A stretch of 64,000 nucleotides of DNA from Candidatus Latescibacterota bacterium (GCA_965207885.1 OZ242311.1:448001-512000); one strand, 5' to 3'. Positions 32,640 to 55,142 are shown, counted from the first letter of the stretch. The notes: generated from the sequence alone by a model not told the origin. A program made the numbers and translations.

Positions 32640-32849
32640 ATTTTTTATATAAACCCGATAGATGCGGTCGGCATTTTCGTGAAAGGTGTCATAGGTCCAT
32701 TCATTGTGGACGAAGAGGTAGGTGAGGATGCAGAAGGTGAGGCCGATGGCAATGCCGATGATGTTGATGGCGGAGTAAATGCGGTGCCTGGCGAGGTTGC
32801 GGATCGCCGTTTTCAGGTAGCTACTGAGTAAAGATATTTCACCGAACAT
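32640..32849 (-). pseudogene. 5' fragment of an ABC permease (type B) cut by the IS
   Basis: MFGEISLLSSYLKTAIRNLARHRIYSAINIIGIAIG...ADRIYRVYIK is near-identical to the N-termini of 37712-40063 and 42504-44828; ends at the IS right end. Confidence 0.9.
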
Positions 32850-32878
32850 TGGTTTCTCCTTTGCAGGACAGGAATTGA

Positions 32879-35254
32879 TCACTCATATCGCAGGGCGTCC
32901 ACGGGATTGGTGCGGGCAACTCTCCACGCCTGATAACTCACCGTGGTCAAGGCGATGAACAATGCCAGAAAACCACTCAATACAAACGCCCATATTTCCA
33001 GGTCAATGCGATAGGCGAAGTCCTGTAGCCACCTGTGCATCGCGTAATAGGCGATTGGCCAGGCAATGAGATTGGCAATGCCGACGAGCAGAGCGAACTC
33101 TTTTGACAACATGAGCACGAGGTTGGAAACGGATGCGCCCAGGACTTTGCGGATGCCGATTTCTTTGATGCGTTGTTGTGCTGTGAAGGAGGCGAGTCCG
33201 AACAGTCCGAGGCTGGCGACGAATATGGCGAGGATGGAGAAGAGGCCAAAGAGTGTGCCTATTTGTTTTTCTGTGCGATAGAGTTTGTCGTAGTCGTCGT
33301 CGAGAAAGAAATAGTCGAATGGCCTGTCCGATACGACCTCGCGCCACTGGGTTTTTAGAAAGTTCAGTGTGGCAGCAATATCGTCTGAGCGGATCCGGAT
33401 GGAAAGATACTCTATCCAACTTCCTCCCATCATGAGCACAAGCGGTTCAATTTCATGGTGCAGGGACTGATAATGAAAGTCCTTCACAACGCCCACCACA
33501 TCTCCCTGAATCTCCACATTCAATATATTCCCTTCTGGATAGACCCGTTCAAGTCTTCTATTGGCGAGGGAAGTCCATCCAAATTTTCGCACGGCAGCTT
33601 CATTGAGGATAAATGCGCCATTTCGATCGCTTCTAATATCCTCTGAAAAGGCGCGGCCCTCTAAAATTCCAATACCAAATGCCTGAATAAACTCGTGATC
33701 TACATACATCACGTTGATCAGTAAAGCATCTTTGTGTGCGGGATCAAGGGAAGGGCGAAAGAGATGGGCAGCAATCTCTCGGCCTGGTACGGTAGAAGAC
33801 GCCGATACATTTAATACCGCTGCCTGCGCTGACACTGCGGATTTATATCGCTTCACCAATTGTCTATCAATCGGTATGACAATCACCTGTTCTTTATTGA
33901 AGCCCAGTTTCTTGTGTTTGATGTAATCCGATTGATGGTAAACGACAACTGTCCCAATGATGAGAACAATTGAGATGACAAACTGAAATACGACGAGTGT
34001 TTTGCGAGAACTGGAGGTTTTCAATCCTCGCCTCAGGGTGCTTTTTAATACTTCCACTGGCTGAAAAGCTGAGAGGAATAAGGCGGGGTAAATCCCAGAG
34101 AGTAGCCCTGCAAATAACGCAACACTGAGCAGGGCTAACAATACATGCCAATTGCCTGTGTAATCCAATACCAATTCGCGCTGGGTAAAGGCGTTGAATG
34201 CAGGGAGTGAGAGTTCAACGAGAACAACGGCAAACATTAGGGCTAATAACGCCAGTAATATGGATTCGCCCATAAACTGACGGATTAGCTGTGATCGGTT
34301 TGCGCCAACGACTTTTCGCATGCCGACCTCTTTTGGCCGGGTCGCTGAGCGAGCTGTAGAGAGGTTCATAAAGTTGATACAGGCGAGCACGAGGACGAAA
34401 AGAGCAATGATCAGGAAGAGATAGACGTACCGAATATCGCCGTTGGAGCTTATTTCAAATTCCAGGTGGGAATGCAAATGAATATCGGTTAATGGCTGTA
34501 GAAAAGGCTTGAATTGGATCCCTGAAGCCTTGAGTTGTTCCCCCATATGTCTTTCGATAAAATTGGGTAACTCTGTTTCTAACTCGTCCGCAGCCTGGGT
34601 GTCTTGTAAGAGCAGATAGGTATAATAGCTGTGATCGACCCAATCGCTACGCCTCATGGATGAGACCAGAAAATGAAACTGTAAATGGGTATTGTGGGCG
34701 TGGTTTTCTAAAACCCCGGTGATCTTAAACGCTTTTCCATCTACCGAAAGGGTCTGTCCCATCGGATCCTGCTCGCCGAAATATTTCCGAGCCATTTCTT
34801 CTGTCAGGACAATGGAATGGGGTTCTTGGAGTGCTGTTCTGGGGTCACCCTGAATGAGTGGAAAATCGAAGACCTGAAAGATACTTGTCTCGGTGAACAA
34901 GACGCCTCTTTCGTAGAACTGATTTTGCTGGTTTGCGATAGGCGTTTTTTCATCATTTTTGTAAAACCGGACGGCATCTACAACAGTGGGATAATCTTGA
35001 ACGAGAGCCGGTCCCATCGGGAATGATGTAATTGCAATTCGACGCGTTTGTCCTGCTATATGTGCTTCTTCAGCGAGCCGATAAATTCGGTGTGCGTGTT
35101 CGTGGTGCTGGTCATAGCTCAGTTCATCTTGCACATAGAGCAGGATGAGGATGCAACAGGCCATGCCGATGGCGAGGCCGAGGATGTTGATGGCAGAGAA
35201 TGTTTTGTTTCTGGCGATGTTGCGGATGGCAACGGTCAGATAATTTTTGATCAT
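32879..35254 (-). CDS. MacB/FtsX-like duplicated ABC permease (type A)
   Basis: INILGLAIG, LACINFMNL, KEVGMRKVVGA, KEIGIRKVLGA and NPVDALRYE. Confidence 0.93.
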   Translation of the reverse strand: MIKNYLTVAIRNIARNKTFSAINILGLAIGMACCILILLYVQDELSYDQHHEHAHRIYRLAEEAHIAGQTRRIAITSFPMGPALVQDYPTVVDAVRFYKNDEKTPIANQQNQFYERGVLFTETSIFQVFDFPLIQGDPRTALQEPHSIVLTEEMARKYFGEQDPMGQTLSVDGKAFKITGVLENHAHNTHLQFHFLVSSMRRSDWVDHSYYTYLLLQDTQAADELETELPNFIERHMGEQLKASGIQFKPFLQPLTDIHLHSHLEFEISSNGDIRYVYLFLIIALFVLVLACINFMNLSTARSATRPKEVGMRKVVGANRSQLIRQFMGESILLALLALMFAVVLVELSLPAFNAFTQRELVLDYTGNWHVLLALLSVALFAGLLSGIYPALFLSAFQPVEVLKSTLRRGLKTSSSRKTLVVFQFVISIVLIIGTVVVYHQSDYIKHKKLGFNKEQVIVIPIDRQLVKRYKSAVSAQAAVLNVSASSTVPGREIAAHLFRPSLDPAHKDALLINVMYVDHEFIQAFGIGILEGRAFSEDIRSDRNGAFILNEAAVRKFGWTSLANRRLERVYPEGNILNVEIQGDVVGVVKDFHYQSLHHEIEPLVLMMGGSWIEYLSIRIRSDDIAATLNFLKTQWREVVSDRPFDYFFLDDDYDKLYRTEKQIGTLFGLFSILAIFVASLGLFGLASFTAQQRIKEIGIRKVLGASVSNLVLMLSKEFALLVGIANLIAWPIAYYAMHRWLQDFAYRIDLEIWAFVLSGFLALFIALTTVSYQAWRVARTNPVDALRYE

Positions 35255-35272: not shown

Positions 35273-37687
35273 TCACTCATCTCGCAACTCTTTCACGGGG
35301 TCTGTTCGCACAATGCGTGTGGTGTGATATGAAATTGCCACAAGTGCCAGGGCGATACAGCCAATCGCTGGTCCTGCAAAGTGCATTGGCTCCAGTGGTG
35401 TTTGAAAAGGGAAGCGTTGCAAATACGCACGCATCGCAAAAAAGGACATGGAGGTTCCAATGATACACCCAATGACAGCAAGACGGACTATGGGCAAGGA
35501 TAGCAAGACAAAGAGGGCGTGTGCGGAAGCACCCAGAACTTTGCGAACGCCAACTTCTTTTGTGCGGCGAGACAGCATGTGCATGGCAAGCCCGATCAAT
35601 CCCACACAGGCGACTATAATCGCCATGAGCGAAGCCGTATAGCCGATGGATTGATACATTTTTCGAGGATCTCGAATGGAATTTACAAGGTCATCCTGCA
35701 AAAGGCCGAACTGGGGTGTAATACCTGGCGCGACCTCGAGCCAGAGTTGCTTTAATATGGCTTCGGTTTCCGTTGCTATGTCCGGGTGGAGGCGCACCAG
35801 AATAGCCCGAATCGCGGTTTCGGGGTCTTTGTGAATGACCAGCGGACCCATAGGGGGCAATATATTTTGAAAATAAAAGTCAGGGATGACACCTGCAACC
35901 TGGGGGTGCTCAACTTGTCCCACTTGAAATGGAAATGTTTGACCAGGTGCGTGTGTCCATCCAAATTGCTTTGCGAAGTGTTCGTTGACCAAAACTTCGT
36001 TGATCGGTCCGTTTGGATCCAGATTTTTTCCTGAGACCAGATCTATGCCGAGTGTTTTTAGAAAGTCGCCACGCACTTTGTAATGCCATATTATCGTTTC
36101 TGAATGGGTCAGCTTTTGCATGCCTGCCGACCACAATACTGGGATGTTATTCACAGCGGCCATTCCGACAACTCCTGGGAGTTGTTCTGCTTTTTGGCGA
36201 AATCGCTCGTAATAGACTTCTGCTTCGTCCCCTGGAACTTTGGGCTGTATGACCATTAAGTGGCGCATGTCGAATCCCCTATCCATAGACGTGAAGTAAT
36301 TGATTTGATGCACCATAATTGTGGAGGATGCCACCAAAAATACAGCTACTGCAAATTGAACAATCAGCAGAAATCGGCTCAGGCGTGCTCTCTGTCCCGG
36401 AAATGTCTCACTTTTGAGGGCATTTACGGGCTGAAGCCGGGACAATAGCCACGATGGGTAGAAGCCCGCCAGAATTGCCAATAGGACGGGCAATACAAGG
36501 ATGAACAGGAATCCTGTGATATTCCCCTGAAGCTGAGGCTTATAGTGAGGAAAGAAGGGAAAGAGAGATGCAAAATGGGGAAGCAATAATTCGTTTGCGC
36601 TTAGTGCCAGTCCCATTGCGAGAAAACAAAGAATCAAGGATTCGAGGATGGTCTGCCCAATAATATGGCGGCGTGTGGCGCCGAGGGTTTTGCGTATGCC
36701 GACTTCCGTGCCGCGCGTCATGAGTCGGCCAATGGTTACGATGCCAAAATTGACGGATCCTACAATGAGTACGAGAAGCCCCACCAGAGATAGCAAGACC
36801 AGAAAATGTTGCGGCAGGTACCTGACTTGAAGTCCGGACATCTCGAATTTGGGCAATGCAGACAGGGGTTGAAGATGGACGTGAAAGGGAGACGCTTCCT
36901 TTGTCCATTGTCCTTCGGCGCGATAGTTGTCACTCTGTTTGGCAAAATAAGCGTCTGAAAAGTAGGGCAATCGGTTCTTTATGTGATCGGGGGTAATATT
37001 TTTTTTGAGGTGCAAAAAGAGCATGGCTTCAAATTCACCTCGCGGATCAGACGCTGCGCTCGGAATCAGGTGCTGATATGGGATGAGCATATCGAACTGC
37101 AAGCTCGAATGGTGCGAAAGCGTTTCGACGATACCGCTGATGGTAAAATGTTCGCGCACGTTGTTCCTCACCAGGGTCAACGAGGTCCCTACTATGTCGG
37201 CGATTGCTCTGTCACGCGATAGTTTTTCTGCGAGTGTTCGAGAGATGAGTATGTTTTGTGGATGTGACAGGGTCTCTGGATTTCCGTAAAGCACGGGGAA
37301 TGAAAAGAGCGACAAAAACGAGGGATCGACATACGCTGCCTGATCTCTTCGGAAATGTTCGTCTCCGTAGAGATATGTAAGATAGCTTAACCGGTATCGA
37401 CAAACTGTTGCCAATTCGTGCAGTTCATCCGCGAGCAGCGGCCCGGCATGGGCGCGAAAAGATGCGTGTTGCCGCTCCCTTTCGGTCTGAGCCATTTCAC
37501 TGGTGCGGTAGATCCAGTAGATTCGATCTGCGTTGTCGTGGAATTCATCTCGCGCGCGATAGCGGTCTTCGACAATGACAAATACCATCAACGCACACGT
37601 AATGCCCACTGTCAGGCTCAACACACTCATCACACTGGCAATCCGGTCGCGTTTGAGTCGCCGCCAGGCGATTTTGAGGTTTTTCAT
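35273..37687 (-). CDS. MacB/FtsX-like duplicated ABC permease (divergent)
   Basis: EVGIRKTLGA, QFAVAVFL, KEVGVRKVLGA and DPVKELRDE. Confidence 0.9.
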   Translation of the reverse strand: MKNLKIAWRRLKRDRIASVMSVLSLTVGITCALMVFVIVEDRYRARDEFHDNADRIYWIYRTSEMAQTERERQHASFRAHAGPLLADELHELATVCRYRLSYLTYLYGDEHFRRDQAAYVDPSFLSLFSFPVLYGNPETLSHPQNILISRTLAEKLSRDRAIADIVGTSLTLVRNNVREHFTISGIVETLSHHSSLQFDMLIPYQHLIPSAASDPRGEFEAMLFLHLKKNITPDHIKNRLPYFSDAYFAKQSDNYRAEGQWTKEASPFHVHLQPLSALPKFEMSGLQVRYLPQHFLVLLSLVGLLVLIVGSVNFGIVTIGRLMTRGTEVGIRKTLGATRRHIIGQTILESLILCFLAMGLALSANELLLPHFASLFPFFPHYKPQLQGNITGFLFILVLPVLLAILAGFYPSWLLSRLQPVNALKSETFPGQRARLSRFLLIVQFAVAVFLVASSTIMVHQINYFTSMDRGFDMRHLMVIQPKVPGDEAEVYYERFRQKAEQLPGVVGMAAVNNIPVLWSAGMQKLTHSETIIWHYKVRGDFLKTLGIDLVSGKNLDPNGPINEVLVNEHFAKQFGWTHAPGQTFPFQVGQVEHPQVAGVIPDFYFQNILPPMGPLVIHKDPETAIRAILVRLHPDIATETEAILKQLWLEVAPGITPQFGLLQDDLVNSIRDPRKMYQSIGYTASLMAIIVACVGLIGLAMHMLSRRTKEVGVRKVLGASAHALFVLLSLPIVRLAVIGCIIGTSMSFFAMRAYLQRFPFQTPLEPMHFAGPAIGCIALALVAISYHTTRIVRTDPVKELRDE

Positions 37688-37711: not shown

Positions 37712-40063
37712 TCACTCATCTCTCAACGAATCAGCCGGGTTTGCGCGGGCTGCTTTGAGGGTTTGGGCGGTGACGGTTGTGAGTACGACGAGGAACATGG
37801 CTACGCTGCCGAGTAAGAATGTGCCAATACCCAATTCGGTGCGATAGGCGAAGGTTTGTAACCATTGATTGGTCGCGTAATAGGCGATTGGAAAGGCGAT
37901 GAGGCTTGATAGGGCGATGTAGAGGACAAATTCCCGCGAGAACAGGGATAAGATTTGCGTCTGAGATGCGCCCAGGACTTTGCGAATGCCAATTTCTTTG
38001 GTGCGTCTTGTTGTGGCGAGAGCCGCCAGTCCGAATGCGCCGAGTGCAGCGATGAAGATGGCGAATCCGGTGGCGTATTGGATCATGAGATTCCAGCGTT
38101 CTTCTTTTTTGTATTGTTTGTCGAGGTCTTCATCGATGAATGAGAAGTTGAATGCGTGGTTGGGTGCGATTTTTTTCCACTGTTCTTTTATAAATGCGAT
38201 GGTGCCGGGCACATTTTCGGGATGGATGCGGACCAATAAGCGTCCGGTGTATGTGCTGAGTGGCAGAACAGCGGGTCTGATTTTATGATGCAGAGAGCGG
38301 AAGTGGAAATTTTGAACAACGCCGATGATGGTTCTTTCTTTTAAGCCGCCGTATGTGATTGTTTTGCCAACCGGGTCTTCTATGTCGAATTTTTCGACGA
38401 GTGCTTCGTTTACAATGACAGCTTCCTTTTGATCTGTTGGAAAGTCTCTGTTGTATTCTCGACCTGCAGCGAGTTTTATGTCGAGTGTTTTGAACAAGTC
38501 GTAGTCAATACTAATACCTTCAACGGGTTGTTCTGGACTTCCCTGATATGTTACATAGGTTGACATACTCATGTCGTTGTTTAGACGGTGGTTGATCCAG
38601 GTCGTGCTGATCACGGCATGGTGAGACAGCAGGGCATCTCGAAAAGCCGTTTCTGTGGTTTTGTTTTCTTTTTTTAGATCACTGGTCCAGATGGCGATAA
38701 CGTGTTCGGTTTGATATCCCAGTGGTTGGGTCCGCAAGTATGTGAGTTGTTTGCCCATCATCAGGGTGGTGATGATGAAGAATATGGATAGGGCGAACTG
38801 AAAAATGATTAATATGTTGCCGAACCGATTGCCCGTTTTGATTTGCAATCTGCTCGTTATGATCTGGGTCGGCTGCAATCGGGATAGGATAAGGGCAGGA
38901 TAACCTCCTGCTGTGATGCCGACGAGGCTGATTAGGAGGATGAGAAAGGCGAGTGTTGTAGGGTTGAGACCGTCGGTCAAGGATAGGGATTTCCCAGATA
39001 GGTTATTGAATGTTGGCAATGAGAGTTCTGCGACGGCAATGCCAGCGATGAGTGCGATGACGATAAGTAACAGAGATTCCCCGATAAATTGGTTTGCGAT
39101 TTGTGAGCGTTTTGCGCCAACGACTTTTCTCAAGCCGACTTCTCTCGCCCGCGTTGCTTGTCGTCCGAGGGTCAGGGTTGTGAAGTTGACGCAGGCGATA
39201 AATAATACGAGGATTGCGATGCCCGATAAGATGTATGAGTAAATTGGATTACTGCGGCGGCTTACATGCATGGTCTGATCGAAGTGCATCTGGGTGAGTG
39301 ATTGAAGTTTGATCAAGTTTTCGCTCTTTTCGTCCCACCAGTTTTTGGTCCATTGAGGAAATTGTTGTTCGAGACTATTGGGGTGTACATTTGGGGGGAG
39401 CATCATGAAAGTAAAGATGCTGTAGGAGTTCCATCTGTCTTCGGTCTTGCTTTGTTCAAAGGGTAGTAGTACGTCAAATTGAATTGTGGAGTTTTTGGGC
39501 GCGTTTTGCACAATGCCCGTGATGGTGTAATCCTGGATTTCATTTTTGTATTCAATGGGAAGCACTGCTCCGATCGGGTTGGTGTTGTTGAAATACTTCT
39601 GCGCGGTTTTTTCTGTTATGAGTGCGGAGTATTTGTCTTGAAGGGTATGGGATAGATCGCCTCGAAGGATTGGAAAAGAAAAGATGTCGAGGAAGTTGGG
39701 ATCAACAAATCCCAACTTTGCCCGAAAAGCGCGATTTTCTGTGCCAATTTTCCCCGTGCGAGATGTAAAACGAATCGTTTGCAGGTCGGGGAATGCTTCT
39801 CTCAGGGCGGGTCCGAGAGGGCCGGGTGTTACACCGTGAACGCGCTCGTTTCTCCCTTTTATATAAACCCGATAGATGCGATCGGCGTTTTCGTGAAAGG
39901 TGTCGTAGGTCCATTCGTTTTGAACGAAGAGAAAGGTGAGGATGCAAAAGGCGAGGCCGATGGCAATGCCGATGATGTTGATGGCAGAGTAGATGCGGTG
40001 CCTGGCGAGGTTGCGGATTGCTGTTTTCAGGTAGCTACTAAATAAAGATATTTCAGCGAACAT
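37712..40063 (-). CDS. MacB/FtsX-like duplicated ABC permease (type B)
   Basis: IACVNF, REVGLRKVVGA, KEIGIRKVLGA and NPADSLRDE. Confidence 0.93.
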   Translation of the reverse strand: MFAEISLFSSYLKTAIRNLARHRIYSAINIIGIAIGLAFCILTFLFVQNEWTYDTFHENADRIYRVYIKGRNERVHGVTPGPLGPALREAFPDLQTIRFTSRTGKIGTENRAFRAKLGFVDPNFLDIFSFPILRGDLSHTLQDKYSALITEKTAQKYFNNTNPIGAVLPIEYKNEIQDYTITGIVQNAPKNSTIQFDVLLPFEQSKTEDRWNSYSIFTFMMLPPNVHPNSLEQQFPQWTKNWWDEKSENLIKLQSLTQMHFDQTMHVSRRSNPIYSYILSGIAILVLFIACVNFTTLTLGRQATRAREVGLRKVVGAKRSQIANQFIGESLLLIVIALIAGIAVAELSLPTFNNLSGKSLSLTDGLNPTTLAFLILLISLVGITAGGYPALILSRLQPTQIITSRLQIKTGNRFGNILIIFQFALSIFFIITTLMMGKQLTYLRTQPLGYQTEHVIAIWTSDLKKENKTTETAFRDALLSHHAVISTTWINHRLNNDMSMSTYVTYQGSPEQPVEGISIDYDLFKTLDIKLAAGREYNRDFPTDQKEAVIVNEALVEKFDIEDPVGKTITYGGLKERTIIGVVQNFHFRSLHHKIRPAVLPLSTYTGRLLVRIHPENVPGTIAFIKEQWKKIAPNHAFNFSFIDEDLDKQYKKEERWNLMIQYATGFAIFIAALGAFGLAALATTRRTKEIGIRKVLGASQTQILSLFSREFVLYIALSSLIAFPIAYYATNQWLQTFAYRTELGIGTFLLGSVAMFLVVLTTVTAQTLKAARANPADSLRDE

Positions 40064-40092: not shown

Positions 40093-42480
40093 TTACTCAT
40101 ATCTCAGGGCATCCACGGGATTGGTGCGAGCAACTTTCCACGCCTGATAACTCACTGTGGTCAAGGCAATGAACAACGCCAGAAAACCACTCAATACAAA
40201 TGCCCATATCTCCAGATCAATGCGATAGGCAAAATCCTGTAGCCACCTGTGCATCGCGTAATAGGCAATTGGCCAGGCGATGAGATTGGCAATGCCGACG
40301 AGCAGGGCGAACTCTTTCGACAACATGAGCACGAGATTAGAAACCGATGCGCCCAGGACTTTGCGGATGCCGATTTCTTTGATGCGTAGTTGTGCTGTGA
40401 AGGAGGCGAGTCCGAACAGTCCGAGGCTGGCGACGAATATGGCGAGGATGGAGAAGAGGCCAAAGAGTGTGCCTATTTGTTTTTCTGTGCGATAGAGTTT
40501 GTCGTAATCGTCGTCGAGAAAGAAATAGTCGAATGGCTTATTCGGTGCGATTTCCTTCCATTGTGCCTTTAGAAAACTGAGTGTGCCTGTAATATCATCG
40601 GAACGAATGCGAATAGAAAAATACTCAAACCAATCTCCCGTCATGATAATTAACGGTTCAATTTCATGATGCAGAGACTTGTAGTGAAAGTCCTTCACTA
40701 TCCCCACCACATCTCCTTGAGCCACCACTTTTAATTTATCCCCTTCTGGAAAAATCAGTTCAAGCTTTTGATTAGCGTGGGAAGTCCATCCCAATTTTCG
40801 CATGGCAGATTCATTGAGGATAAATGTTCCATATTTATCACTCGAAATATCTTTTGAAAAGTCTCTGCCCTCTATAAGATCAAGGCCGTAAGTCGAAATA
40901 AACCCGTGATCAACCTGGAGATGGTTTATCATTAAACCGTCAGAATACGTGCTACCAGAAGAAGGACGAAACAGATTAGAAGGGAGCTTCCGCCCCGGCA
41001 CAGACACAGACAGCGAGGTATTCAGCACATTTCCATAAGTTGACAAAATTGACCTGTATCTCTCTGTCAATTGTTTACCAGGATTAGGCATCACAATGAC
41101 ATGCTCTTTATTGAAGCCCAGTTTTTTGTTTTTGATATAATCCGATTGATGGTAAATGACAACCGTTCCGATAATGAGGACAATTGAGATGACAAACTGA
41201 AATACGACAAGCGTTTTGCGGGAACTGGAGGTTTTCAACCCCCGCTTCAGTGTGCTTTTTAAGACCACTACTGGCTGAAAAGCCGAGAGGAATAAGGCGG
41301 GATAAATCCCAGAGAGTAGCCCTGCAAATAACGCAACACTGAGCAGGGCTAATACGACCTGCCAATTGCCTGTGTAATCCAATACCAATTCGCGCTGAAT
41401 AAAGGCGTTGAACTCAGGTAGTGAGAGTTCAATGAGAACAACGGCCAAAAATAGTGCCACCAAAGCCAGCCATATCGATTCGCTTATGAACTGACGGATT
41501 AACTGTGTACGGTTGGCACCAACGACTTTTCGCATGCCAACCTCTTTTGACCGGGTCGCTGAGCGAGCGGTGGAGAGGTTCATAAAATTGACACAGGCGA
41601 GTATGAGGACGAAAAGAGCAATGCTCAGGAAGAGATAGACATACCGAATATCGCCGTTGGGACTCATTTCCCACTCCAGGTGGGAATGCAAATGAATATC
41701 AGTCAGGGGTTGTAGAAAGTAATCGATTTTAAAGCCTGTAGCCTTGTACTGTTCACCTGCATGTGTCTCAATAAAGTCGGGCAATTTCGCTTCTAATTCT
41801 CCAGCAGAATCTCTTTGCTGAAGCAACAAATAGGTATAAAACTCGTGATTAAACCAACCTGGTTCCTGGAGTATAGGAGATGCAAGGAAGTCGAATTGGA
41901 AATGAGTATTGTGAGCCGCGTCCTTCAAAACACCTGTCACCTTAAACCATGCTTTTTTATCGAGGGTCAGGGTCTGTCCTATCGGATTTTGTTTGCCAAA
42001 ATATTTTTGAGCCATTGCTTCTGTAATCACAATAGAAAAAGGTTCCAAAAATGCTGTCTCTGGATCTCCCTGGCTGAGTGGAAAATTGAAGACTTCAAAA
42101 ACATTCGCATCGGTGAACAAAACACCATCTTCAAAGAAGACATGACCGTTTTGGCCCTCAACAAGCGTCCTTGGATTGGTTCCCTGGAAAAACCGCACAG
42201 CCTTTATCACTTCGGGATAGTCTTTGACAAGTGCAGGTCCCATCGGAAATGGCGTGATCGCAAATTGACGCATGGCTCCGGCGACTTTCCCCTCTGCGGC
42301 GACCCGATAGATTCGGTGTGCGTGTTCGTGGTGCCGGTCATAGCTCAGTTCGTCTTGCACATAGAGCAGGATGAGGATGCAACAGGCCATGCCGATGGCG
42401 AGACCGAGGATGTTGATCGCAGAGAAGGTTTTGTTTCTGGCGATGTTGCGGACCGCAACTGTCAGATAATTTTTGATCAT
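40093..42480 (-). CDS. MacB/FtsX-like duplicated ABC permease (type A)
   Basis: Close paralog of 32879-35254; same motifs. Confidence 0.93.
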   Translation of the reverse strand: MIKNYLTVAVRNIARNKTFSAINILGLAIGMACCILILLYVQDELSYDRHHEHAHRIYRVAAEGKVAGAMRQFAITPFPMGPALVKDYPEVIKAVRFFQGTNPRTLVEGQNGHVFFEDGVLFTDANVFEVFNFPLSQGDPETAFLEPFSIVITEAMAQKYFGKQNPIGQTLTLDKKAWFKVTGVLKDAAHNTHFQFDFLASPILQEPGWFNHEFYTYLLLQQRDSAGELEAKLPDFIETHAGEQYKATGFKIDYFLQPLTDIHLHSHLEWEMSPNGDIRYVYLFLSIALFVLILACVNFMNLSTARSATRSKEVGMRKVVGANRTQLIRQFISESIWLALVALFLAVVLIELSLPEFNAFIQRELVLDYTGNWQVVLALLSVALFAGLLSGIYPALFLSAFQPVVVLKSTLKRGLKTSSSRKTLVVFQFVISIVLIIGTVVIYHQSDYIKNKKLGFNKEHVIVMPNPGKQLTERYRSILSTYGNVLNTSLSVSVPGRKLPSNLFRPSSGSTYSDGLMINHLQVDHGFISTYGLDLIEGRDFSKDISSDKYGTFILNESAMRKLGWTSHANQKLELIFPEGDKLKVVAQGDVVGIVKDFHYKSLHHEIEPLIIMTGDWFEYFSIRIRSDDITGTLSFLKAQWKEIAPNKPFDYFFLDDDYDKLYRTEKQIGTLFGLFSILAIFVASLGLFGLASFTAQLRIKEIGIRKVLGASVSNLVLMLSKEFALLVGIANLIAWPIAYYAMHRWLQDFAYRIDLEIWAFVLSGFLALFIALTTVSYQAWKVARTNPVDALRYE

Positions 42481-47582: not shown

Positions 47583-47849
47583 TTACAGTTTGCCTTTCAT
47601 ATTTCGATCAAAGAATACGCTCACCACCCTCCAGGGCGTAACGGTGGTGTTCACGGCTACGCGCAGCACACGGTTACCCTGTTCCGGGATGATCCGAAAG
47701 AATCGCTCTACCTCAGGGTCCTTCGGGTCGGATATACGCAACATCGGTTCGGCTACCACCCGTTCGATCCACTCTTGAGGGATCATGCGTTCTGTCCTTG
47801 CAAGAACCGCATGTTTGCTAAATTCCAGCTTTATCAATCCGGTTGCCAT
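47583..47849 (-). CDS. DUF4258 domain protein (putative toxin)
   Basis: FSKHA...ER.IPQEWIERVV..P...GNRVLRVAVN...VVSVFFDR; start uncertain. Confidence 0.8.
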   Translation of the reverse strand: MATGLIKLEFSKHAVLARTERMIPQEWIERVVAEPMLRISDPKDPEVERFFRIIPEQGNRVLRVAVNTTVTPWRVVSVFFDRNMKGKL

Positions 47850-47921
47850 ATCGCGCTCATGGCTTTAAGGTACGCGGCGGAATATATCTAAAACAAAAAC
47901 AATAGTTCTTGTAGGGAACGG

Positions 47922-48122
47922 TCAAGCGGTCTCAAATTCCAGGGTGGAGAGCTTCAGATTGGAGGAGCGTTTGGAGAGATAGAGCAGTTCTACGCCCACC
48001 ACTTCGTTTGATGCATTGTAATCGAGCACCACGCCCGGCGAGACCTCTTCTGACTCGACAATAGTAGAGTCGTCAAGGCGCAGATAGAGCGCGTCGGCTT
48101 CCTTATCGATATGTAGTTTCAT
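47922..48122 (-). CDS. DUF2283 domain protein (putative antitoxin)
   Basis: MKLHIDKEADALYLRL...ESEEVSPGVVLDY...VVGVELL; GGAGG RBS. Confidence 0.88.
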   Translation of the reverse strand: MKLHIDKEADALYLRLDDSTIVESEEVSPGVVLDYNASNEVVGVELLYLSKRSSNLKLSTLEFETA

Positions 48123-48230
48123 AATTTGTTGCCTCCATCGTGTACTATTTTTCAGAAGTCCATTTGGGATCAGCATATCCGTATTTACAAATATCTGCAA
48201 TTTAAGCAAAAAAACAAGGGGCTATATGAC

Positions 48231-50609
48231 TTACTCATCTCGCAACGCATCCACGGGATTGCGACGTGCGGCTTTCAGTGTTTGAAAATTCACTGTCAAC
48301 AGCGCGACCAACAAGGTCAGTATTCCTGCGATGCCAAAAACACCTATGCCCAGTTCAATGCGATATGCGAAATTGGTCAACCATTGATTCATCATCCAGT
48401 AGGCAATGGGCCAGGCGATGATATTGGCGACCAGTAGCAGTTTGATAAAATCTCTGGAAAACAACCACATGACATGATGGACAGAAGCCCCCAGTACCTT
48501 CCGAATCCCAATCTCCTTTGTCCGCCGCGCAACCGCCAGTGACGCCAGCCCGAACAATCCCAAACACGAAAGCAGAACAGCCACCAGTGCCGAATGGCTT
48601 AATACGCGAAACCAATAGATTTCATTGGCATACTGTTGATTCAGGTTTTCATCTAAAAACGAGAGTTCAAAGGGGCTATCAGACGCGACTTTTTCCCATG
48701 TGCTTTTGAGCATTTCGATTGTTTCAAAAATTTGGTCCGAGCGCATGCGAATTAGCAGAAATGGGCCATAGTTGTATTTTTCCATCAGCAATGCCAATGG
48801 CTCAATCCGGTTGTGCAAAGACTTTATGTGAAAATCGCGCACGATACCAATAACAACGGGATCGTTAACGCCATTCCTTCCAAAGCCCGCCAGCGTTTTT
48901 CCCACCGGGTTTTCAAGGCTCAATTGCTTTGCCAGGGTTTCGTTGACCAATATGGCATTGTTCAGGTCTGACGGACGGTCTTCTGAAAAATTTCGTCCAG
49001 CGAGAAGAGGTATCTCCAGAGTAGAGAGATAATCGACATCTACGCCAATCACCTTTATCTCAACTATTGAGCCATCGGGCAACGAGTAATTGGACCAGGA
49101 ATAACCACTTTCTGTTGTGAGTGTGCGATCCGTAATTGTAACACCCGCAATGCGTGAGTCATTTACAATGGCTTCCTTATAGGGTTTTGCCAACTGCCGA
49201 TTTGTCTTAATAATGGCGACTTGCTCTTCGTTAAAGCCCAGGTTTTTGTTCCGTATATAATCTTGCTGTTGAATCATTATACCTGTGCCAATGATGAGGG
49301 CTATGGATGCCGCGTATTGCAAAATGATTAACGTGCGCGTCAAAAGGTTGCGCCCACCAGGGCGCGCTTCGCCTTTCATGGCTAAAACAGGTTGAAATCG
49401 CGACAAGACCAGAGCGGGATAACTGCCGGCAATTAGCCCGACAACGCCGAGCAGGAGCAGCAATACCCACCAATCGCCAAAATACGCAAGGGTCAATTTT
49501 TGATGCACAAATCCATTGAATACGGGCAACAGGATTTCGGCAAGTGCGGTGCCCACGAGCAAGCCCAAAAAGCTCAACACCAGTGCTTCGCTCCAAAATT
49601 GTTGAATAATCTGACCGCGGTTAGCACCTACCACTTTGCGCAACCCCACTTCTTTTGCCCGCCCAGAAGACTCTGCGACCGATAGGGTAATAAAGTTGCT
49701 GCACGCAATGAGTAAGACCAGCCATGCAAGCCCCCACAAGATATAAACCCCTGTTGGATTGCCCTGCGGCCCGTAGCGATTGGGAATGTCTGTATTCCAG
49801 TACACATCCGTTAAAGGCTGGAGAATGAAGTTGAATGATGTTTTGAATATCTCTTCTCGTAACTTTTCTTTTTTTGACCAATGATTGAGATCGTCAAGTA
49901 CGCGAGAAGCATTTGTTTCCCCTATTTGTACAAAGATCCATGCACTTGCACCGTGGTAGTGTCTTGCAAGTCCAAAGCCTTTTTCAGCTTTTGTTGAAAC
50001 CAATACGTCGAATTGAAGACTTGATGTTGTAGGCACATCTGCCATAACACCGGTTACGATAAACAACTTATTTTTTATGCTCAATGCTTGCCCTATCAGT
50101 GTGTTGTAATCCTTTACATCCCCAAAAAACTTGCGTGCTGTTGTTTCGGTAATCACTATCCCATCTGGTTGAGCGAGTGCTGTTGTAGGATTACCTGACA
50201 AAAAAGGAAATGTAAACATCGCAAAGAAATCACCACTCACAAACCCCATGGCTGACCGAAAAGATTTGTCTCCCTTTGTGATTTTACTCCTCGTGTGCCG
50301 CATAAATGCACAGGCTTGTTCAACACCTGAGATTTCATCTTTCAACTCATCGACAACCAAAAGCGGATATACCGTATCCCAGATATTAAATGGAATCGTC
50401 TCCCCATCTGGTTGAAGTCTTTGCGCCACCACGCGAAACAATTGGTCGTGGTTCTCGTGAAACTGATCGCGTGACCATTCGTGTTTGACAAACAGAGCCA
50501 TCAAGATACAGCAGGCAAGCCCCAGGCCGAGGCCGAACACATTGATGAATGTGTAGAGCTTCTTTCGCATTAGATTGCGAATCGCGACAACAAAGTAATT
50601 TTTGATCAT
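48231..50609 (-). CDS. MacB/FtsX-like duplicated ABC permease
   Basis: INVFGLGLG, KEVGLRKVVGA, KEIGIRKVLGA and NPVDALRDE. Confidence 0.93.
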   Translation of the reverse strand: MIKNYFVVAIRNLMRKKLYTFINVFGLGLGLACCILMALFVKHEWSRDQFHENHDQLFRVVAQRLQPDGETIPFNIWDTVYPLLVVDELKDEISGVEQACAFMRHTRSKITKGDKSFRSAMGFVSGDFFAMFTFPFLSGNPTTALAQPDGIVITETTARKFFGDVKDYNTLIGQALSIKNKLFIVTGVMADVPTTSSLQFDVLVSTKAEKGFGLARHYHGASAWIFVQIGETNASRVLDDLNHWSKKEKLREEIFKTSFNFILQPLTDVYWNTDIPNRYGPQGNPTGVYILWGLAWLVLLIACSNFITLSVAESSGRAKEVGLRKVVGANRGQIIQQFWSEALVLSFLGLLVGTALAEILLPVFNGFVHQKLTLAYFGDWWVLLLLLGVVGLIAGSYPALVLSRFQPVLAMKGEARPGGRNLLTRTLIILQYAASIALIIGTGIMIQQQDYIRNKNLGFNEEQVAIIKTNRQLAKPYKEAIVNDSRIAGVTITDRTLTTESGYSWSNYSLPDGSIVEIKVIGVDVDYLSTLEIPLLAGRNFSEDRPSDLNNAILVNETLAKQLSLENPVGKTLAGFGRNGVNDPVVIGIVRDFHIKSLHNRIEPLALLMEKYNYGPFLLIRMRSDQIFETIEMLKSTWEKVASDSPFELSFLDENLNQQYANEIYWFRVLSHSALVAVLLSCLGLFGLASLAVARRTKEIGIRKVLGASVHHVMWLFSRDFIKLLLVANIIAWPIAYWMMNQWLTNFAYRIELGIGVFGIAGILTLLVALLTVNFQTLKAARRNPVDALRDE

Positions 50610-50633
50610 GAGAAGCCTCCTGGTGGATCGCGG

Positions 50634-51215
50634 TCAGCCCGCCCAGCTTCCGACCTCTTGTTTTTCCAATGCGCGTTTTAGCTGATGACGTCCGCGGTGG
50701 AGCCAGATTTTTACGGTGCCGAGGGGTACTTGCATTTCCCATACGATTTCGCGGTAGGACAATTCTTTTATGTAGCGAAGCCACATTGCGCGTTGTTGCT
50801 CTTTGGGCAGTGTGCATAGGCCCTGTGTTAAGCGTTGATGGCGTTCTTTTTGTATAATGCTATCTTCTGGCGTTGTCAGGGTGATTGGTTCGGGCATGTG
50901 TTGCGCTATGGTTTCCAGGCCGTTTTTTCGGGATAGCCGGGATCGTAGGTGTGACCGCCCGACGTTGATGGCAATGCGCGTCAGATAGGTTGTGAATGCC
51001 GATTCGCCGCGAAAATGGCGCAGGCTCTGAAAGACTTTCATGAATACCACCTGCATCAGGTCTTCGGTTTCGTCGCGGTCCTTCACATATCGCCCGACAA
51101 TGGCGCGTACGCGATTCTGGTGCAGATGGTAGAGTTTGCCAAATGCGCTTTTGTCGCCGGCTTTGATCATGTGGATCAATTGTACATCGTTTTCTATGTC
51201 TGATCGTTTATTCAT
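50634..51215 (-). CDS. ECF sigma factor (sigma70 family)
   Basis: GDKSAFGKLY, EDLMQVVF, FRGESAFTTYLTRIAIN and LSYREI...GTVKIWLHRGR. Confidence 0.92.
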   Translation of the reverse strand: MNKRSDIENDVQLIHMIKAGDKSAFGKLYHLHQNRVRAIVGRYVKDRDETEDLMQVVFMKVFQSLRHFRGESAFTTYLTRIAINVGRSHLRSRLSRKNGLETIAQHMPEPITLTTPEDSIIQKERHQRLTQGLCTLPKEQQRAMWLRYIKELSYREIVWEMQVPLGTVKIWLHRGRHQLKRALEKQEVGSWAG

Positions 51216-53676
51216 ATCGCAATGCCTCCACGGGGTTCATTTTTGCCGCTTTCACGGCTTGCAGGCTCACTGTTCCGATTACGACCAATAGGGTCAGCAA
51301 GCCGCCGAGTGCAAATACCCCGGCTGTCAACCCGATGCGATAGGCAAAACTCTGTAACCACCAGATCATTATTAGATAAGTCAGGGGCCAGGCGCATAGA
51401 CTTGCGACTATAACCAGTATTACGAACTCACGCGATAACAGCGATACGATATTTAAAATCGAGGCGCCCATAATTTTTCGAATGCCTATTTCTTTGGTCC
51501 GTCTTGTCACGGCCAGTGCCGTTAGCCCAAATGCGCCCAGACAGGCGATAAAAACAGCCAGAATCGTTGCATAGCCCACGATTTTGCTCCAGTTTAAAAG
51601 GTCCCGGTAATAATTCTCAATATCCTCTTGCAAAAACGTGAAGTAAAACGGCTCGCCAACGGGCGCGATTTCTTTCCACCCGGTTTCCAGATATTTCAAG
51701 GTCTCGACAATATCGTCAGATTTGATCCTCACAAAGAAGTTTTCTGCTTCATCTCCCATTGATGGATTCAGTAAAAGCATCGCGGGTTGAACTTTTTGCC
51801 GGAGTGGCATTAAGTAAAAATCCTGCACCACGCCAATGACCTGGGTAATTCCTTTTGACGCTCTCAATAAGTTTGCTGCTTTGCCTTCAAATGTGATGGT
51901 CTGTCCAATTGGATCGTCCCATCCCATCTGTTTGACCAGTTCTTCATTTACGAGAGCACTGCCCTGTGCTTGTTCATTCGCATTAGCGTCAAAATCTCGT
52001 CCCGATAGTAACTTCATCTCGAATGTTTTTACAAAACCATAATCCACATAGAAGCGTTTTATGCCCACAGACTGTCCTTGTTCACCTTTTCCTTCTCTGC
52101 GGTCTTGCCATCTTTCATCCAATAGCGGATACCTCACTGTCGTGCATCCAATTACCTTGTGATGTTGCAGATAATGGTTCTTGAGCAAATCTTGATCCCC
52201 TCTCATTTCGGGAAGACCGTCTGTGTTAATAGAAATCACGAATTCCGTGTTAAAGCCCAAGTCTTTTTCTTTTACAAATTGCAGTTGATATACCATGATC
52301 AGTGTGCAGGTAATCAAAGCACTCGACACGGCAAACTGCCCAAAGACGAGTCCGCGACCAAACGGATTGCGATGGCTCAGCTTAAACCGCCCCGTGAGAA
52401 TGCGAACCGGATTAAACCCGGAGATCATAAATGCGGGATAGCAGCCTATCAGGAGACCGACAAGTAAGACCAGAGCGATCAAAAACACAAAAGTAGGCCA
52501 GGTAAAAATATTGTTGAAGGACAGGTTCTGATGCATGAATTCATTGAAAAACGGCAGTACCAGTTCGGCAAGTGACAGACCCAAAACTACGGCTACAAGG
52601 CTCAATAAAACCGACTCGCTTAAAAATTGCCGAATCAGTTGAGGGCGCACAGCACCTACAACTTTGCGAATGCCCACTTCTTTTGTTCGGGTAACCAGCC
52701 GCCCCACCGCAAGGTTGACAAAATTGATGGAAGCCATGACCAGAACCAGCAGTGAAAGACAGATTAGTCCATACCCGTTCATTGGGTCTCGTGGTGCCTT
52801 TAAGCCGTGATTGGTGGTTTCTATAAGATCTATTCGATGGTGCAGATTTGTCAGCGGCTGAAGTTGCAAATGAAAGTTGTCTTCTGAGATCTCTGGTCGC
52901 AGCATATGCGCTTTTACAATCGCGTGCATCGCCGGTTCTATGTCTGTGGATTTAGTATTTTCACTGAGTTGAACGTAAGTATCACACGTAGAAAAGCGAT
53001 TCCAATCATTTGCCTCCTGGTGCAGAAAAAACCATAGATGCTGATATGGTAGCAACATATCAAACTGAATGGATGAGTTGTCGGGTATGGGTTCGGCGAC
53101 GCCTGTTACTGTGAAATCGGCGTGTTCGTGGCTCCATAGAGATCGCAGTATCAGTTGTTTTCCGATCGGATTCTCATCTCCGAAAATTTTCTTTGCTGTT
53201 TCAGTGCTCAATACAACAGATTGCGGGTGTTTGAGGGCAATTTCCGCATCGCCAGAGCGAAGGGGAAACGAAAACATGTCTAAGAATTCGGGATCTACGA
53301 TCAGGAATGGCAATTTGAAGATCTGTTCTCCGTACGTAACCTGTATCTCTCGATCACTGGGATCGCCTCCCCGTCCGGCAACTAAGCGTACAGCCCGGTC
53401 CACGCCTGTTACAGTTTGGATCAATTCATTGCGCAAAGCGGTTGGGACCGTGGGTATGCGATAAGATTTATTATCTGGGCCACGGAATTCGGTATATACC
53501 CGATAAATTTGGTCGGCATTCTTGTGAAATGCATCATAGGTCCATTCGTGATGTATGTACAGGAATGTCAAGATGCAAAACGCGATGCCGATTGCCAGGC
53601 CAGTGATGTTGATCGCAGAATACACTTTGTAACGGACGAGGTTGCGATACGCTACGGTCAGATAGTTGCGGAACAT
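51208..53676 (-). CDS. MacB/FtsX-like duplicated ABC permease
   Basis: MFRNYLTVAYRNL, KEVGIRKVVGA and NPVEALRYE; stop overlaps the ECF start. Confidence 0.93.
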   Translation of the reverse strand: MFRNYLTVAYRNLVRYKVYSAINITGLAIGIAFCILTFLYIHHEWTYDAFHKNADQIYRVYTEFRGPDNKSYRIPTVPTALRNELIQTVTGVDRAVRLVAGRGGDPSDREIQVTYGEQIFKLPFLIVDPEFLDMFSFPLRSGDAEIALKHPQSVVLSTETAKKIFGDENPIGKQLILRSLWSHEHADFTVTGVAEPIPDNSSIQFDMLLPYQHLWFFLHQEANDWNRFSTCDTYVQLSENTKSTDIEPAMHAIVKAHMLRPEISEDNFHLQLQPLTNLHHRIDLIETTNHGLKAPRDPMNGYGLICLSLLVLVMASINFVNLAVGRLVTRTKEVGIRKVVGAVRPQLIRQFLSESVLLSLVAVVLGLSLAELVLPFFNEFMHQNLSFNNIFTWPTFVFLIALVLLVGLLIGCYPAFMISGFNPVRILTGRFKLSHRNPFGRGLVFGQFAVSSALITCTLIMVYQLQFVKEKDLGFNTEFVISINTDGLPEMRGDQDLLKNHYLQHHKVIGCTTVRYPLLDERWQDRREGKGEQGQSVGIKRFYVDYGFVKTFEMKLLSGRDFDANANEQAQGSALVNEELVKQMGWDDPIGQTITFEGKAANLLRASKGITQVIGVVQDFYLMPLRQKVQPAMLLLNPSMGDEAENFFVRIKSDDIVETLKYLETGWKEIAPVGEPFYFTFLQEDIENYYRDLLNWSKIVGYATILAVFIACLGAFGLTALAVTRRTKEIGIRKIMGASILNIVSLLSREFVILVIVASLCAWPLTYLIMIWWLQSFAYRIGLTAGVFALGGLLTLLVVIGTVSLQAVKAAKMNPVEALRYE

Positions 53677-53720
53677 TTTATTCTCCTTGGCTGTCCCAGG
53701 CGGTCATGACGCAGCTTGTC

Positions 53721-55142
53721 TTAAAGGAGAGGAGAGATTAGCGTGAGCATGACTCGAAAAGAACGATTCGTCATCATAACCTTTCCTTGCCGATCAATCA
53801 GAACATAGTGCGGAAGGCCTCCAATGTTATACATCTTTGATACCTTGTTATTGTTGTCTATAGCGTCCAGGATTTGGGGCCATCCAATGTGAGACTTCTC
53901 CACATAATTCTCGACTTTGTATCTTCTGGTATCGGCACTGACGCCGATAATCTCGAAATTATCGCGGTCGAATTTTTCAGATAGCGCTTTCAATCTGGGG
54001 GTATCTTTGACACATGGCCCGCACCCGGTGGACCAGAAGTCCAACAAAACGTATTTGCCCCTGAAATTTGAAAGCCGAAGCTTCTTTCCGTCTATATCCC
54101 TAACTGCAAAATCCGGTGCCACGAAACCTCGCTTGATTTCAATCTTTGTTGGGACAGAGACATCTGATTTTCTGAGGATAATTTCATCACCAGAGGCGGA
54201 GATGCTTTTAACTTCAAATGTGATACCACCGATATTAAAGGGGTTGTTAACGTCGTAATATTCCGCTGATTCGCGTTCCTTTTCGAATACACCATCGCGA
54301 TCAAGATCCCATAGTATTCTGTTAAAAATTTTGGTAGAGTAGGTCGCGAAGCGTTCTTTGTTGTAGATAGCCAAATCGTATGATTGACCATCTATTTCTA
54401 CCTGCCCTTTTCGGTATTCAGCTATCTTTCCCTTGAATTTTGGGATAGTTGGATCTTTCTGAACTTTCGTATATTGCGGATATTTATGAATCACTACGTC
54501 CACCCTTTGGGTTCTGGCGATTTTACCATCGTTATATTCAAATTCAACGGTAGCATTTGCCCTCTGCCCATATGGAAGTTTCCCTGGTAGAATGTAGCTC
54601 ATCAGACGAAATGCCGTGCCGAAGGTCTCCGGATATATCGCATGTTCATCGGAGAAGTCTTCATTGTTGTTGGTATCAAAAAAGAAAACGGCATTTCCAT
54701 TCCGGTCCTGTCCATTCACAAAGGATACTTTGCTATCTACAGGTACCTCTAAGTCATACGGCTCCCAGAGTTCCCGGTTCATCTTTTCTGGACGATTATC
54801 GTACAATAGAAACTGCAACGCACTCAATTCGAATATCCCATAGAATTCGATGGTAACTCCCGGTGGAAATCCTCGCAGGCCCTTCTCGAGCGGTTTTCGG
54901 CTTATCAAATCGTGAAAATTAAAGTCAATCCGTGGTGACTCAAATATTGCGAATGAGCTTAAAGGTACACGCTCCAGGGGGATCACAACTTGATCCATAT
55001 TAGCTGAGTCAAATCGCGCAACGGAGGAATCCTGGGTGTTCTTAGAAAGGCCGAAGAGTGTGGAATGAACAGATAGAGAGAAGAGTATAAACAGACCAGC
55101 GAGAATGCTGTTCTTTCGAAAAATCGGGTTGATGGAGATCAT
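53721..55142 (-). CDS. Exported TlpA-like thiol-disulfide redoxin with large unknown N-terminal domain
   Basis: Signal-like N-terminus; APDF...GKYVLLDFWSTGCGPC...GLPHYVLIDRQG. Confidence 0.88.
   Translation of the reverse strand: MISINPIFRKNSILAGLFILFSLSVHSTLFGLSKNTQDSSVARFDSANMDQVVIPLERVPLSSFAIFESPRIDFNFHDLISRKPLEKGLRGFPPGVTIEFYGIFELSALQFLLYDNRPEKMNRELWEPYDLEVPVDSKVSFVNGQDRNGNAVFFFDTNNNEDFSDEHAIYPETFGTAFRLMSYILPGKLPYGQRANATVEFEYNDGKIARTQRVDVVIHKYPQYTKVQKDPTIPKFKGKIAEYRKGQVEIDGQSYDLAIYNKERFATYSTKIFNRILWDLDRDGVFEKERESAEYYDVNNPFNIGGITFEVKSISASGDEIILRKSDVSVPTKIEIKRGFVAPDFAVRDIDGKKLRLSNFRGKYVLLDFWSTGCGPCVKDTPRLKALSEKFDRDNFEIIGVSADTRRYKVENYVEKSHIGWPQILDAIDNNNKVSKMYNIGGLPHYVLIDRQGKVMMTNRSFRVMLTLISPLL

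Follow-up and report, generated by a model that had tools for sequence, protein, structure and literature searches.

Duplicated MacB/FtsX-type permeases of a sponge-associated Latescibacterota-like bacterium have a sigma-54 promoter and enhancer in common with unlinked ATPase and adaptor genes

The 64,000-nucleotide (nt) stretch of Candidatus Latescibacterota bacterium (GCA_965207885.1 OZ242311.1:448001-512000), referred to here as the window, carries an array of duplicated MacB/FtsX-type permease genes on its minus strand (32640 to 55142; positions are those of the window unless marked as genome or locus positions). The array falls into two transcription units, each headed by a sigma-54 promoter and a 39-nt enhancer, and the same two elements recur elsewhere in the genome in front of further permease units, an adaptor gene, and three genes for ATPases of the ATP-binding cassette (ABC) class. 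The window permeases are orphans by position only. They are probably interchangeable permease bodies which, with an ATPase pair encoded in trans and an adaptor in common, make up inducible MacAB-like pumps. What was observed directly, and is described below, is the domain architecture, the gene counts, the common promoter and enhancer, the orthologous regulators in other phyla, and the way conservation is spread along the permeases.

The host genome is a single 6.23-Mb contig, of which the window represents positions 448001-512000. Open reading frame (ORF) listing and Pfam searches identified eight intact minus-strand ORFs of 783 to 822 amino acids (aa) between 32879 and 53676. All eight matched MacB_PCD (E values of 1.9e-25 to 2.5e-37) and FtsX (5.3e-21 to 6.7e-28) above the Pfam cut-offs; two FtsX stretches were present in every copy and two MacB_PCD stretches in seven of the eight, and hydropathy analysis placed eight hydrophobic segments in each protein. 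Each chain thus consists of two fused MacB/LolC-like 4-helix units. No ABC_tran domain was detected by Pfam in any of the eight copies. Specifically, the array comprises permease 1 (32879..35254, 791 aa, MacB_PCD-FtsX twice), permease 2 (35273..37687, 804 aa), permease 3 (37712..40063, 783 aa), permease 4 (40093..42480, 795 aa), permease 5 (42504..44861, 785 aa), permease 6 (44858..47323), permease 7 (48231..50609, 792 aa), and permease 8 (51208..53676, 822 aa). Permease 6, the first gene of the unit designated B, is an 821-aa ORF whose likely start is the ATG at 47287 behind GGAG. Permease 2 is the most divergent copy, with 28% identity to permease 1, and permeases 4 and 3 are young duplicates of permeases 1 (76% identity) and 5 (80% identity), respectively.

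Identity of the other window copies to permease 1 ranged from 28 to 76% and, because the genome is also a single contig, the array is not an artefact of assembly collapse. In a tree of 38 paralogues from the host genome, window copies fell into at least five old clades (28 to 45% identity), each with sisters in other clusters, in addition to the two young pairs 1/4 and 3/5. The array therefore combines old subfamilies with recent segmental duplication and is not a fresh amplification. The closest public relatives of the window permeases were on closed 'Candidatus Latescibacterota' chromosomes (91%, 72%, and 46% identity), and sponge metagenomes from several studies contained 23 to 54% of the sampled words of the window stretch; the host is a sponge-associated Latescibacterota-like bacterium.

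A ninth permease remains as an N-terminal fragment of about 77 to 85 aa (32628..32882, minus strand; start of MacB_PCD, E = 1.2e-5) that is 88 to 91% identical by tblastn to the N-termini of permeases 3 and 5. It is cut by an insertion sequence (IS) element (31446..32636, plus strand) encoding a DDE_Tnp_1 transposase (31506-32621, Pfam) and bounded by 20-nt inverted repeats (31446-31465 and 32617-32636). No tblastn match to the rest of this permease was found in 28000-31446, beyond the IS. The same IS family (DDE_Tnp_1 transposase of 371 to 374 aa) strikes the permease family repeatedly: one copy splits a permease of another enhancer-headed unit (genome 1836936-1838060), one precedes an N-truncated permease (genome 246607-247722), and one adjoins the lone ATPase gene described below (locus L077:7123-8247). 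An earlier note, made from the window alone, had reported eight intact permeases of about 800 aa plus a fragment, all on the minus strand and in two sigma-54-driven units that also include an extracytoplasmic function (ECF) sigma factor and a TlpA-like protein. The ORF, Pfam, and tblastn results confirmed the former and domain searches the latter, and collapse of the array in long reads, which the note had raised against itself, was refuted.

All permease copies are divided between units B and C, each of which has an exact TGGCAC-N5-TTGC element of the sigma-54 -24/-12 type on the coding strand of its intergenic head: TGGCACAAAAATTGC for unit B (47361..47375, minus strand) and TGGCACGATTATTGC for unit C (55251..55265, minus strand). 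Matches to this pattern with up to one mismatch were not in excess in the window (8 versus 5.24 +/- 2.26 by chance). Both exact promoters are, however, preceded at a constant spacing by one and the same 39-nt element. This enhancer, or upstream activating sequence, holds two TGT-N10/11-ACA half-palindromes, is near-identical at the two unit heads, and lies on the minus strand 64 nt upstream of the promoter in unit B (47440..47478) and 63 nt upstream in unit C (55329..55367). Directly upstream of the unit B enhancer, a terminator-like hairpin with an 11-bp stem and a U run (47479..47525, minus strand; fold of -15.3 kcal/mol, z = -3.3) ends unit C, which fits units B and C being separate; the hairpin was spotted by eye and by folding, and a strict terminator and promoter scan of 47300-48300 returned nothing.

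Across the 6.23-Mb genome, the 39-nt enhancer occurs at 10 sites; at nine of these, TGGCAC-N5-TTGC with no more than one mismatch lies downstream at +63/64 nt. These nine precede both window units and five other permease units, as well as an operon termed here the engine operon and a lone ATPase gene. The engine operon (genome 392615-403988) lies 77 kb from the array and has the order permease-HlyD-ATPase-permease-ATPase-HD-permease, and the lone gene (genome 1327319-1327993), about 826 kb from the array, encodes a 224-aa ATPase. Together, the enhancer-headed units contain 18 intact permeases (22 if the close co-directional genes after 1804264 join unit F), three ATPases, and one adaptor. The sigma-54 gene rpoN is present in the genome. 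Judged by sequence, all features of a regulon that depends on sigma-54 and a bacterial enhancer-binding protein are in place, namely the -24/-12 promoter, the enhancer, rpoN, and an AAA+ activator assigned by orthology. The arrangement is conserved among relatives: the enhancer was found in all 12 genus mates at 1 to 13 sites each (0 to 2 for a reversed control pattern), and variants of it in six of eight genomes of the same order. In all six genus mates checked, the enhancer variant of the lone ATPase gene, with a promoter at +63/64, precedes an ATPase 95.5 to 97.8% identical to the lone one.

Several further features accompany these sites. The tenth enhancer site (genome 4263408-4263446) is located between an ECF sigma gene and ORFs of 98 and 242 aa without Pfam match, and a TTGACA-N17-TATTTT element was seen by eye downstream of it. 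One permease gene (genome 3489824-3492274) has an exact sigma-54 promoter and no enhancer. A TnpB gene (L078:15183-16295) lies directly upstream of the engine-operon enhancer. A candidate second engine operon at genome 247771-258095 was rejected, as its apparent broken ATPase is part of a fused exporter split by TnpB and its upstream part is not HlyD-like; this ABC exporter (genome 252410-255641), in which transmembrane and nucleotide-binding domains are joined, sits within another permease cluster, and the TnpB is of the IS605 OrfB/Cas12f-like type. Contigs of three RNA libraries (two studies) and one DNA run were also compared with window 35600-55500. RNA-library contigs 90 to 98% alike covered parts of the array (for example, 2,309 nt over 47598-49902, 976 nt over 47525-48498, and 2,062 nt ending at 37206); most such matches derive from relatives, DNA may be present in the libraries, and the contigs give no level, start, or strand, which leaves them neutral on expression, and gaps in their coverage carry no meaning.

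The genome holds 94 ABC_tran matches, none of them within genome 448001-512000, which confirmed the absence of an ABC ATPase from the 64 kb. A profile of the window copies retrieved 37 full-length permeases and three larger fragments, and one further divergent duplicated permease lies next to its own ATPase. Of 83 ORFs that matched an ATPase seed, 11 were of the MacB/LolD type. In a tree of these ATPases, the three from the regulon grouped with 26 array-linked ATPases of other genomes, apart from the host's eight other MacB/LolD-type ATPases (support 0.999). Most of the eight adjoin other permease types; the two exceptions are 4245203, between a tRNA synthetase and a ClpB-type gene, and 3581059, next to an 835-aa protein without Pfam match. 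The array-linked clade comprises two classes. Class II ATPases come after the adaptor (here genome 399216-399893). Those of class I either follow class II or lie at the distal end of the array; the host has two, the lone gene and 395783-396532. Support was 0.999 for the 13-member class I clade and weak (0.298) for the class II grouping, and at all five loci where two ATPases occur, both classes are represented. The array-type HlyD adaptor (genome 399925-401283) is present in a single copy, scoring 986 bits against itself and 47 bits against the next match. Among 21 related genomes, permeases numbered 2 to 42 and array-type ATPases 1 to 5 per genome, so that the number of motors does not scale with the number of permeases; at the threshold of this comparison the host counts 38 permeases, one large fragment included.

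These counts, of a kind that the earlier note had proposed, set 37 full-length permeases against 11 MacB/LolD-type ATPases, three of them array-type, so that a separate ATPase for each permease was not found. The suggestion of one shared ATPase encoded elsewhere held insofar as the co-regulated ATPases are remote; in place of one there are three, in two conserved classes, together with an HlyD-type adaptor. Likewise, the absence of an adaptor holds for the window and not for the genome, where the HlyD adaptor is encoded in a co-regulated operon.

Conservation within the family follows the sites at which an ATPase would dock. Mean pairwise column identity among the 38 paralogues was 0.57 in the loop between transmembrane helices (TM) 2 and 3, 0.61 in the TM6-TM7 loop, and 0.56 in the C-terminal tail, and was lowest in the periplasmic domains (0.28 to 0.29). 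A loop motif, R-x-K/R-E-[VI]-G-x-R-K-x-x-G-A, is invariant in both halves of all eight window copies, and it aligns with the TM2-TM3 segment of MacB, identified in a review of MacB as the major coupling helix (PMC5985334). According to that review, the nucleotide-binding domain (NBD) is always a separate protein when permeases of the MacB superfamily are fused (PMC5985334). The loops of orphan and ATPase-adjacent copies are nearly identical. With conservation highest in the coupling loops and C-terminal tail and lowest in the periplasmic domains, the permeases look made for NBD binding. Divergence is concentrated in the periplasmic domains even in the young duplicates, which are 62% identical there versus 87 to 98% elsewhere in pair 1/4, and 69 to 76% versus 80 to 93% in pair 3/5.

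A candidate switch for the regulon lies in the same window. It consists of a response regulator and sigma-54 activator with a REC-AAA+-HTH_8 architecture in Pfam (15434..16867, plus strand), the likely activator of the regulon, and a histidine kinase (16857..18200, plus strand, start probably at 16857) with two TM helices and an outer loop of about 4 residues. No sensor domain was recognized in the kinase, and it has no periplasmic sensor. None of the approximately 27 sigma-54 activator genes in the genome abuts an enhancer site; the activator was therefore assigned by orthology in place of adjacency. The window activator was the best host-genome match of all 10 array-adjacent activators from other phyla tested (376 to 651 bits, versus 263 to 371 bits for the next), and orthologues of the kinase, which is single copy in the host genome, adjoin the activator at nine loci of other phyla. 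The two proteins are thus the unique orthologues of regulators found beside adaptor-ATPase-permease arrays in other phyla and, because of this orthology, the pair is likely the controller of the array. A dual TGT-N10-12-ACA site was present in six of 11 activator-adjacent intergenic regions of other phyla (0 to 1 of 200 shuffles each), a pattern that was defined post hoc, after the data had been seen, and counts as support only; five of the six regions have a sigma-54-like element 52 to 101 nt further on.

When the window copies were used as queries, 75 loci were recovered in Bacteroidota, Ignavibacteria, Calditrichota, Armatimonadota, Aminicenantes, and others. Two or more full-length permeases were present at 47 of the 75 and four or more at 33, with a maximum of eight in about 22 kb. 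At least 18 loci have an array-type ATPase at the edge of the array, a lower bound since many arrays extend past the DNA examined, with one to six permeases per one or two ATPases. An adaptor was found at 15 loci, of the HlyD/MacA type and directly before the ATPase, and eight loci show the full layout of a divergent sigma-54 activator followed by adaptor, ATPase(s), and permeases. Overall, the 'orphan' status under which the earlier note had placed the family does not stand, as in other phyla the same permeases are encoded within operons, downstream of genes for an adaptor and an ATPase.

A profile of the eight copies matched MacB chains in the PDB with E values down to 8e-21, the best match being the solved periplasmic domain of a 'putative permease'. 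With a predicted FtsX 4-TM unit, a MacB-type periplasmic core, and a coupling helix, the window copies belong by sequence to the type VII ABC (MacB/FtsX superfamily) permeases. Their best NCBIfam match, for all eight and over the full length in six, is TIGR03434 ('ADOP family duplicated permease', ADOP standing for 'acidobacterial duplicated orphan permease'). ADOP proteins likewise have a duplicated MacB_PCD-FtsX architecture and the same length, and form a large paralogous family with tandem arrays lacking an adjoining ATPase. The window copies scored 280.7 to 336.4 bits, far below the curated cut-off of 622.3, and are thus ADOP relatives and not members by the NCBI threshold; they also differ in that their host is Latescibacterota-like and not one of the Acidobacteria, and in being tied by a common enhancer and promoter to ATPase and adaptor genes. 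ADOP is defined as lacking ATPase partners. Such a lack, taken as family-wide, is contradicted by the engine operon and by the loci in other phyla. Arrays of 8 to 10 such permeases are described in Psychroflexus torquis (PMC3914696), and 28 to 33 copies in Dyadobacter genomes (PMC11573002). No literature on the mechanism, powering, or regulation of these permeases was found in a search that covered few subscription journals.

Other systems resemble parts of this arrangement. As in MacAB-TolC, the window permeases have a MacB periplasmic core domain, an FtsX 4-TM unit, and the coupling-helix motif, and their regulon includes an adaptor of the HlyD/MacA family and ATPases of the MacB/LolD type. 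An HlyD/MacA-type adaptor encoded directly before an ATPase is a hallmark of tripartite pumps. In MacB, however, a homodimerizing 4-TM permease carries a fused NBD at its N-terminus, whereas here the NBD is separate and two permease units are joined in one 8-TM chain; a single adaptor and three ATPases stand against dozens of alternative permeases, the TolC genes are unlinked, and control is by sigma-54 and a two-component system. DarBCD, the darobactin exporter, in which a duplicated permease works with a separate ATPase and adaptor, is a precedent for this architecture. DarB (NF038008, about 777 aa) is a duplicated permease like the window copies and was their second-best NCBIfam match, but they reached only 66.1 to 167.4 bits against a cut-off of 700, and peptide biosynthesis genes were absent near the array according to the Pfam annotation of the window. 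MsiK and group II modules of energy-coupling factor transporters are ATPases common to several permease sets. So are MceG, with Mce1 and Mce4, and FhuC, with several importers (PMC9947336, PMC10147376). As proposed here, one motor is encoded away from several membrane modules; those systems, however, belong to other ABC classes, as importers or Mce systems with few permease sets, whereas the present one would be an exporter-like type VII system with 18 to 37 alternative permeases and a common adaptor. In BceAB-BceRS, too, a MacB-superfamily permease and a separate ATPase are genetically tied to a kinase without an extracellular sensor. Bce-type regulators are of the OmpR type, in contrast to the NtrC-type sigma-54 activator of the window. 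BceB also has 10 TM helices and one extracellular domain (PMC5985334), compared with eight TM helices and two periplasmic domains here.

On the model that best joins these observations, the eight genes would encode pseudo-heterodimeric type VII ABC permeases, every chain of which combines a pair of 4-helix units with a pair of periplasmic domains. The kinase lacking a periplasmic sensor and the NtrC-type activator would switch on nine sigma-54 units through one enhancer, and the proteins so induced would include the single array-type HlyD/MacA-like adaptor together with three ATPases, one of class II and two of class I. The two conserved coupling loops of each permease would receive one ATPase of each class; with the common adaptor and an unlinked TolC-type duct, the permease would then drive substrates out of the periplasm or the outer leaflet by mechanotransmission. 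The fast-diverging periplasmic domains would set specificity. Physical sharing of the ATPases and adaptor, a heterodimeric motor, efflux activity, and the nature of the substrates are what we infer here. In its most specific form, a modular type VII ABC machine in which one sigma-54-switched class I/class II heterodimeric motor and one adaptor serve 18 to 37 interchangeable fused permeases, we give the model even chances. As a bolder addition, the permeases may also report substrate load to the sensor-less kinase.

Several points weigh against this model. Support for a physical permease-ATPase complex comes from co-regulation and gene counts. For about 19 of the 37 permeases, neither the enhancer nor a sigma-54 promoter lies within 450 nt, and at the tenth enhancer site a sigma-54 promoter is missing. 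The whole upstream cassette, hairpin included, is the same in unit B and in the engine operon, and the common enhancer may in part be a copied promoter cassette that moves with genes. Both ATPase classes retain Walker A, Q-loop, signature, Walker B, and H-loop; as both are thus catalytically complete by motif, a heterodimer is not forced. The two engine-operon ATPases might serve only their three neighboring permeases. The genome has 14 OEP domain matches, representing seven genes, and none of these seven OEP/TolC genes lies near arrays or enhancer sites. Finally, the dual TGT..ACA pattern, which was in any case defined post hoc, was absent from five of the 11 regions (L015, L021, L051, L053, and L058).

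It is possible, though unlikely, that the permeases use the common ATPases without trans-envelope efflux and instead transfer force to periplasmic partners, in the manner of FtsEX or LolCDE, either extracting lipids, lipoproteins, or glycolipids from the inner membrane or activating periplasmic enzymes such as the co-transcribed thioredoxin-fold proteins. The missing linkage of TolC to the regulon, the ratio of one adaptor to many permeases, and the exported thioredoxin-fold proteins in two of nine units would suit such a role, and type VII ABC proteins include the non-efflux systems FtsEX, LolCDE, and YbbAP-TesA (PMC5985334). It is opposed by the HlyD/MacA-type adaptor directly before the ATPase, both in the engine operon and at 15 of 75 loci elsewhere, and by the match of the periplasmic domains to the MacB periplasmic core. 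We consider it quite doubtful that the array permeases are ATPase-free receptors or signal transducers that report envelope ligands to the sensor-less kinase, as in Bce systems, or to the embedded ECF sigma factor. The kinase, with two TM helices, a loop of about 4 residues, and no sensor domain, the window without an ATPase, and the ECF sigma gene placed between permeases without a visible anti-sigma, in an order kept at L001 and L055, speak for such a proposal. Against it, the NBD-coupling loops are the most conserved part of the 38 paralogues and are alike in orphan and ATPase-adjacent copies, ATPase genes are co-regulated with the arrays, and the 10-TM permease and OmpR-type regulator of Bce modules were not found here. 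A sensing role could come on top of transport.

We also weighed whether segmental duplication and IS activity have left mostly redundant or decaying copies that do little today, with the promoter merely a copied cassette. IS elements do truncate or split three permease copies, the young duplicates are at 76 to 80% identity, and the upstream cassette is common to unit B and the engine operon; decay is nonetheless improbable, since eight of the nine window copies are intact over the full profile, the copies represent at least five old clades at 28 to 45% identity with sisters elsewhere in the genome, key motifs are invariant, and arrays and enhancer are retained in 12 of 12 genus mates. In addition, a flavobacterial array of such permeases was highly expressed in a 2014 proteome study (PMC3914696). 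That each permease has a dedicated ATPase elsewhere is the least credible explanation and very improbable: no point was found in its support, the genome total being 94 ABC_tran matches, and 37 permeases stand against 11 MacB/LolD-type ATPases, of which only three are in the array-linked clade and most of the other eight lie beside other permease types (exceptions 4245203 and 3581059).

Other genes within the units may bear on what the pumps respond to. The ECF sigma factor gene (50634..51215, minus strand) lies between permeases 8 and 7; the order permease-ECF sigma-permease recurs in two related genomes (loci L001 and L055), and no anti-sigma for it was visible. ECF sigma genes occur at three of the 10 enhancer sites (window 50634-51215, L076:501-1082, and L079:406-1563), and one of the three is fused to a 3-keto-disaccharide hydrolase-like domain. 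The first gene of unit C (53721..55142, minus strand) encodes an exported TlpA/ResA-like thiol-disulfide oxidoreductase of 473 aa with a signal anchor and a CGPC motif. Exported thioredoxin-fold (TlpA/Redoxin) proteins are encoded in two of the nine sigma-54 units (window 53721-55142 and genome 1804315-1806159), one with a 330-aa N-terminal domain of unknown type and the other with TPR repeats. The recurrence of thioredoxin-fold proteins and ECF sigma factors hints at an envelope-stress response, without naming a substrate.

Between units B and C, Pfam identified a pair of small genes on the minus strand (47583..48209) with DUF2283 (47922-48209) and DUF4258 (47583-47849) domains, which is toxin-antitoxin-like. 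The Psychroflexus array paper also mentions an addiction module within its cluster (PMC3914696). Window 1-8200 and 30040-31170 are dense in defense and addiction genes, including type I restriction-modification HsdS and HsdM, Fic, a zeta-toxin-like kinase, an Xre/ParS-type antitoxin, DUF488, and HEPN. Window 8400-25900 and 56800-64000 carry sulfatases, a heparinase II/III-like protein with DUF4962, ThuA, PhyH dioxygenases, and lactonases. Such gene content is typical of a glycan-degrading symbiont and agrees with the matches to sponge metagenomes.

In Acidobacteriota, Bacteroidota, and their relatives, few unexplained paralogous families are as large as the duplicated 'orphan' MacB-type permeases, of which some genomes carry dozens. 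Large permease families and arrays were already known; to these the present genome contributes a dispersed, enhancer-defined regulon that names the motor parts, the conserved lone ATPase, and the likely switch. The near-invariant 39-nt enhancer with its sigma-54 promoter marks which permease units, three ATPases, and single adaptor go together and, with a likely two-component switch in the same window, the idea of a shared motor becomes testable with named parts. If the model is true, it would answer how 'orphan' ADOP-type permeases are powered and would extend module sharing to type VII ABC exporters, akin to the S-components of energy-coupling factor transporters that share one energizing module. 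It would further point to a way in which a sponge symbiont adjusts a wide envelope-clearing repertoire with a small number of motors.

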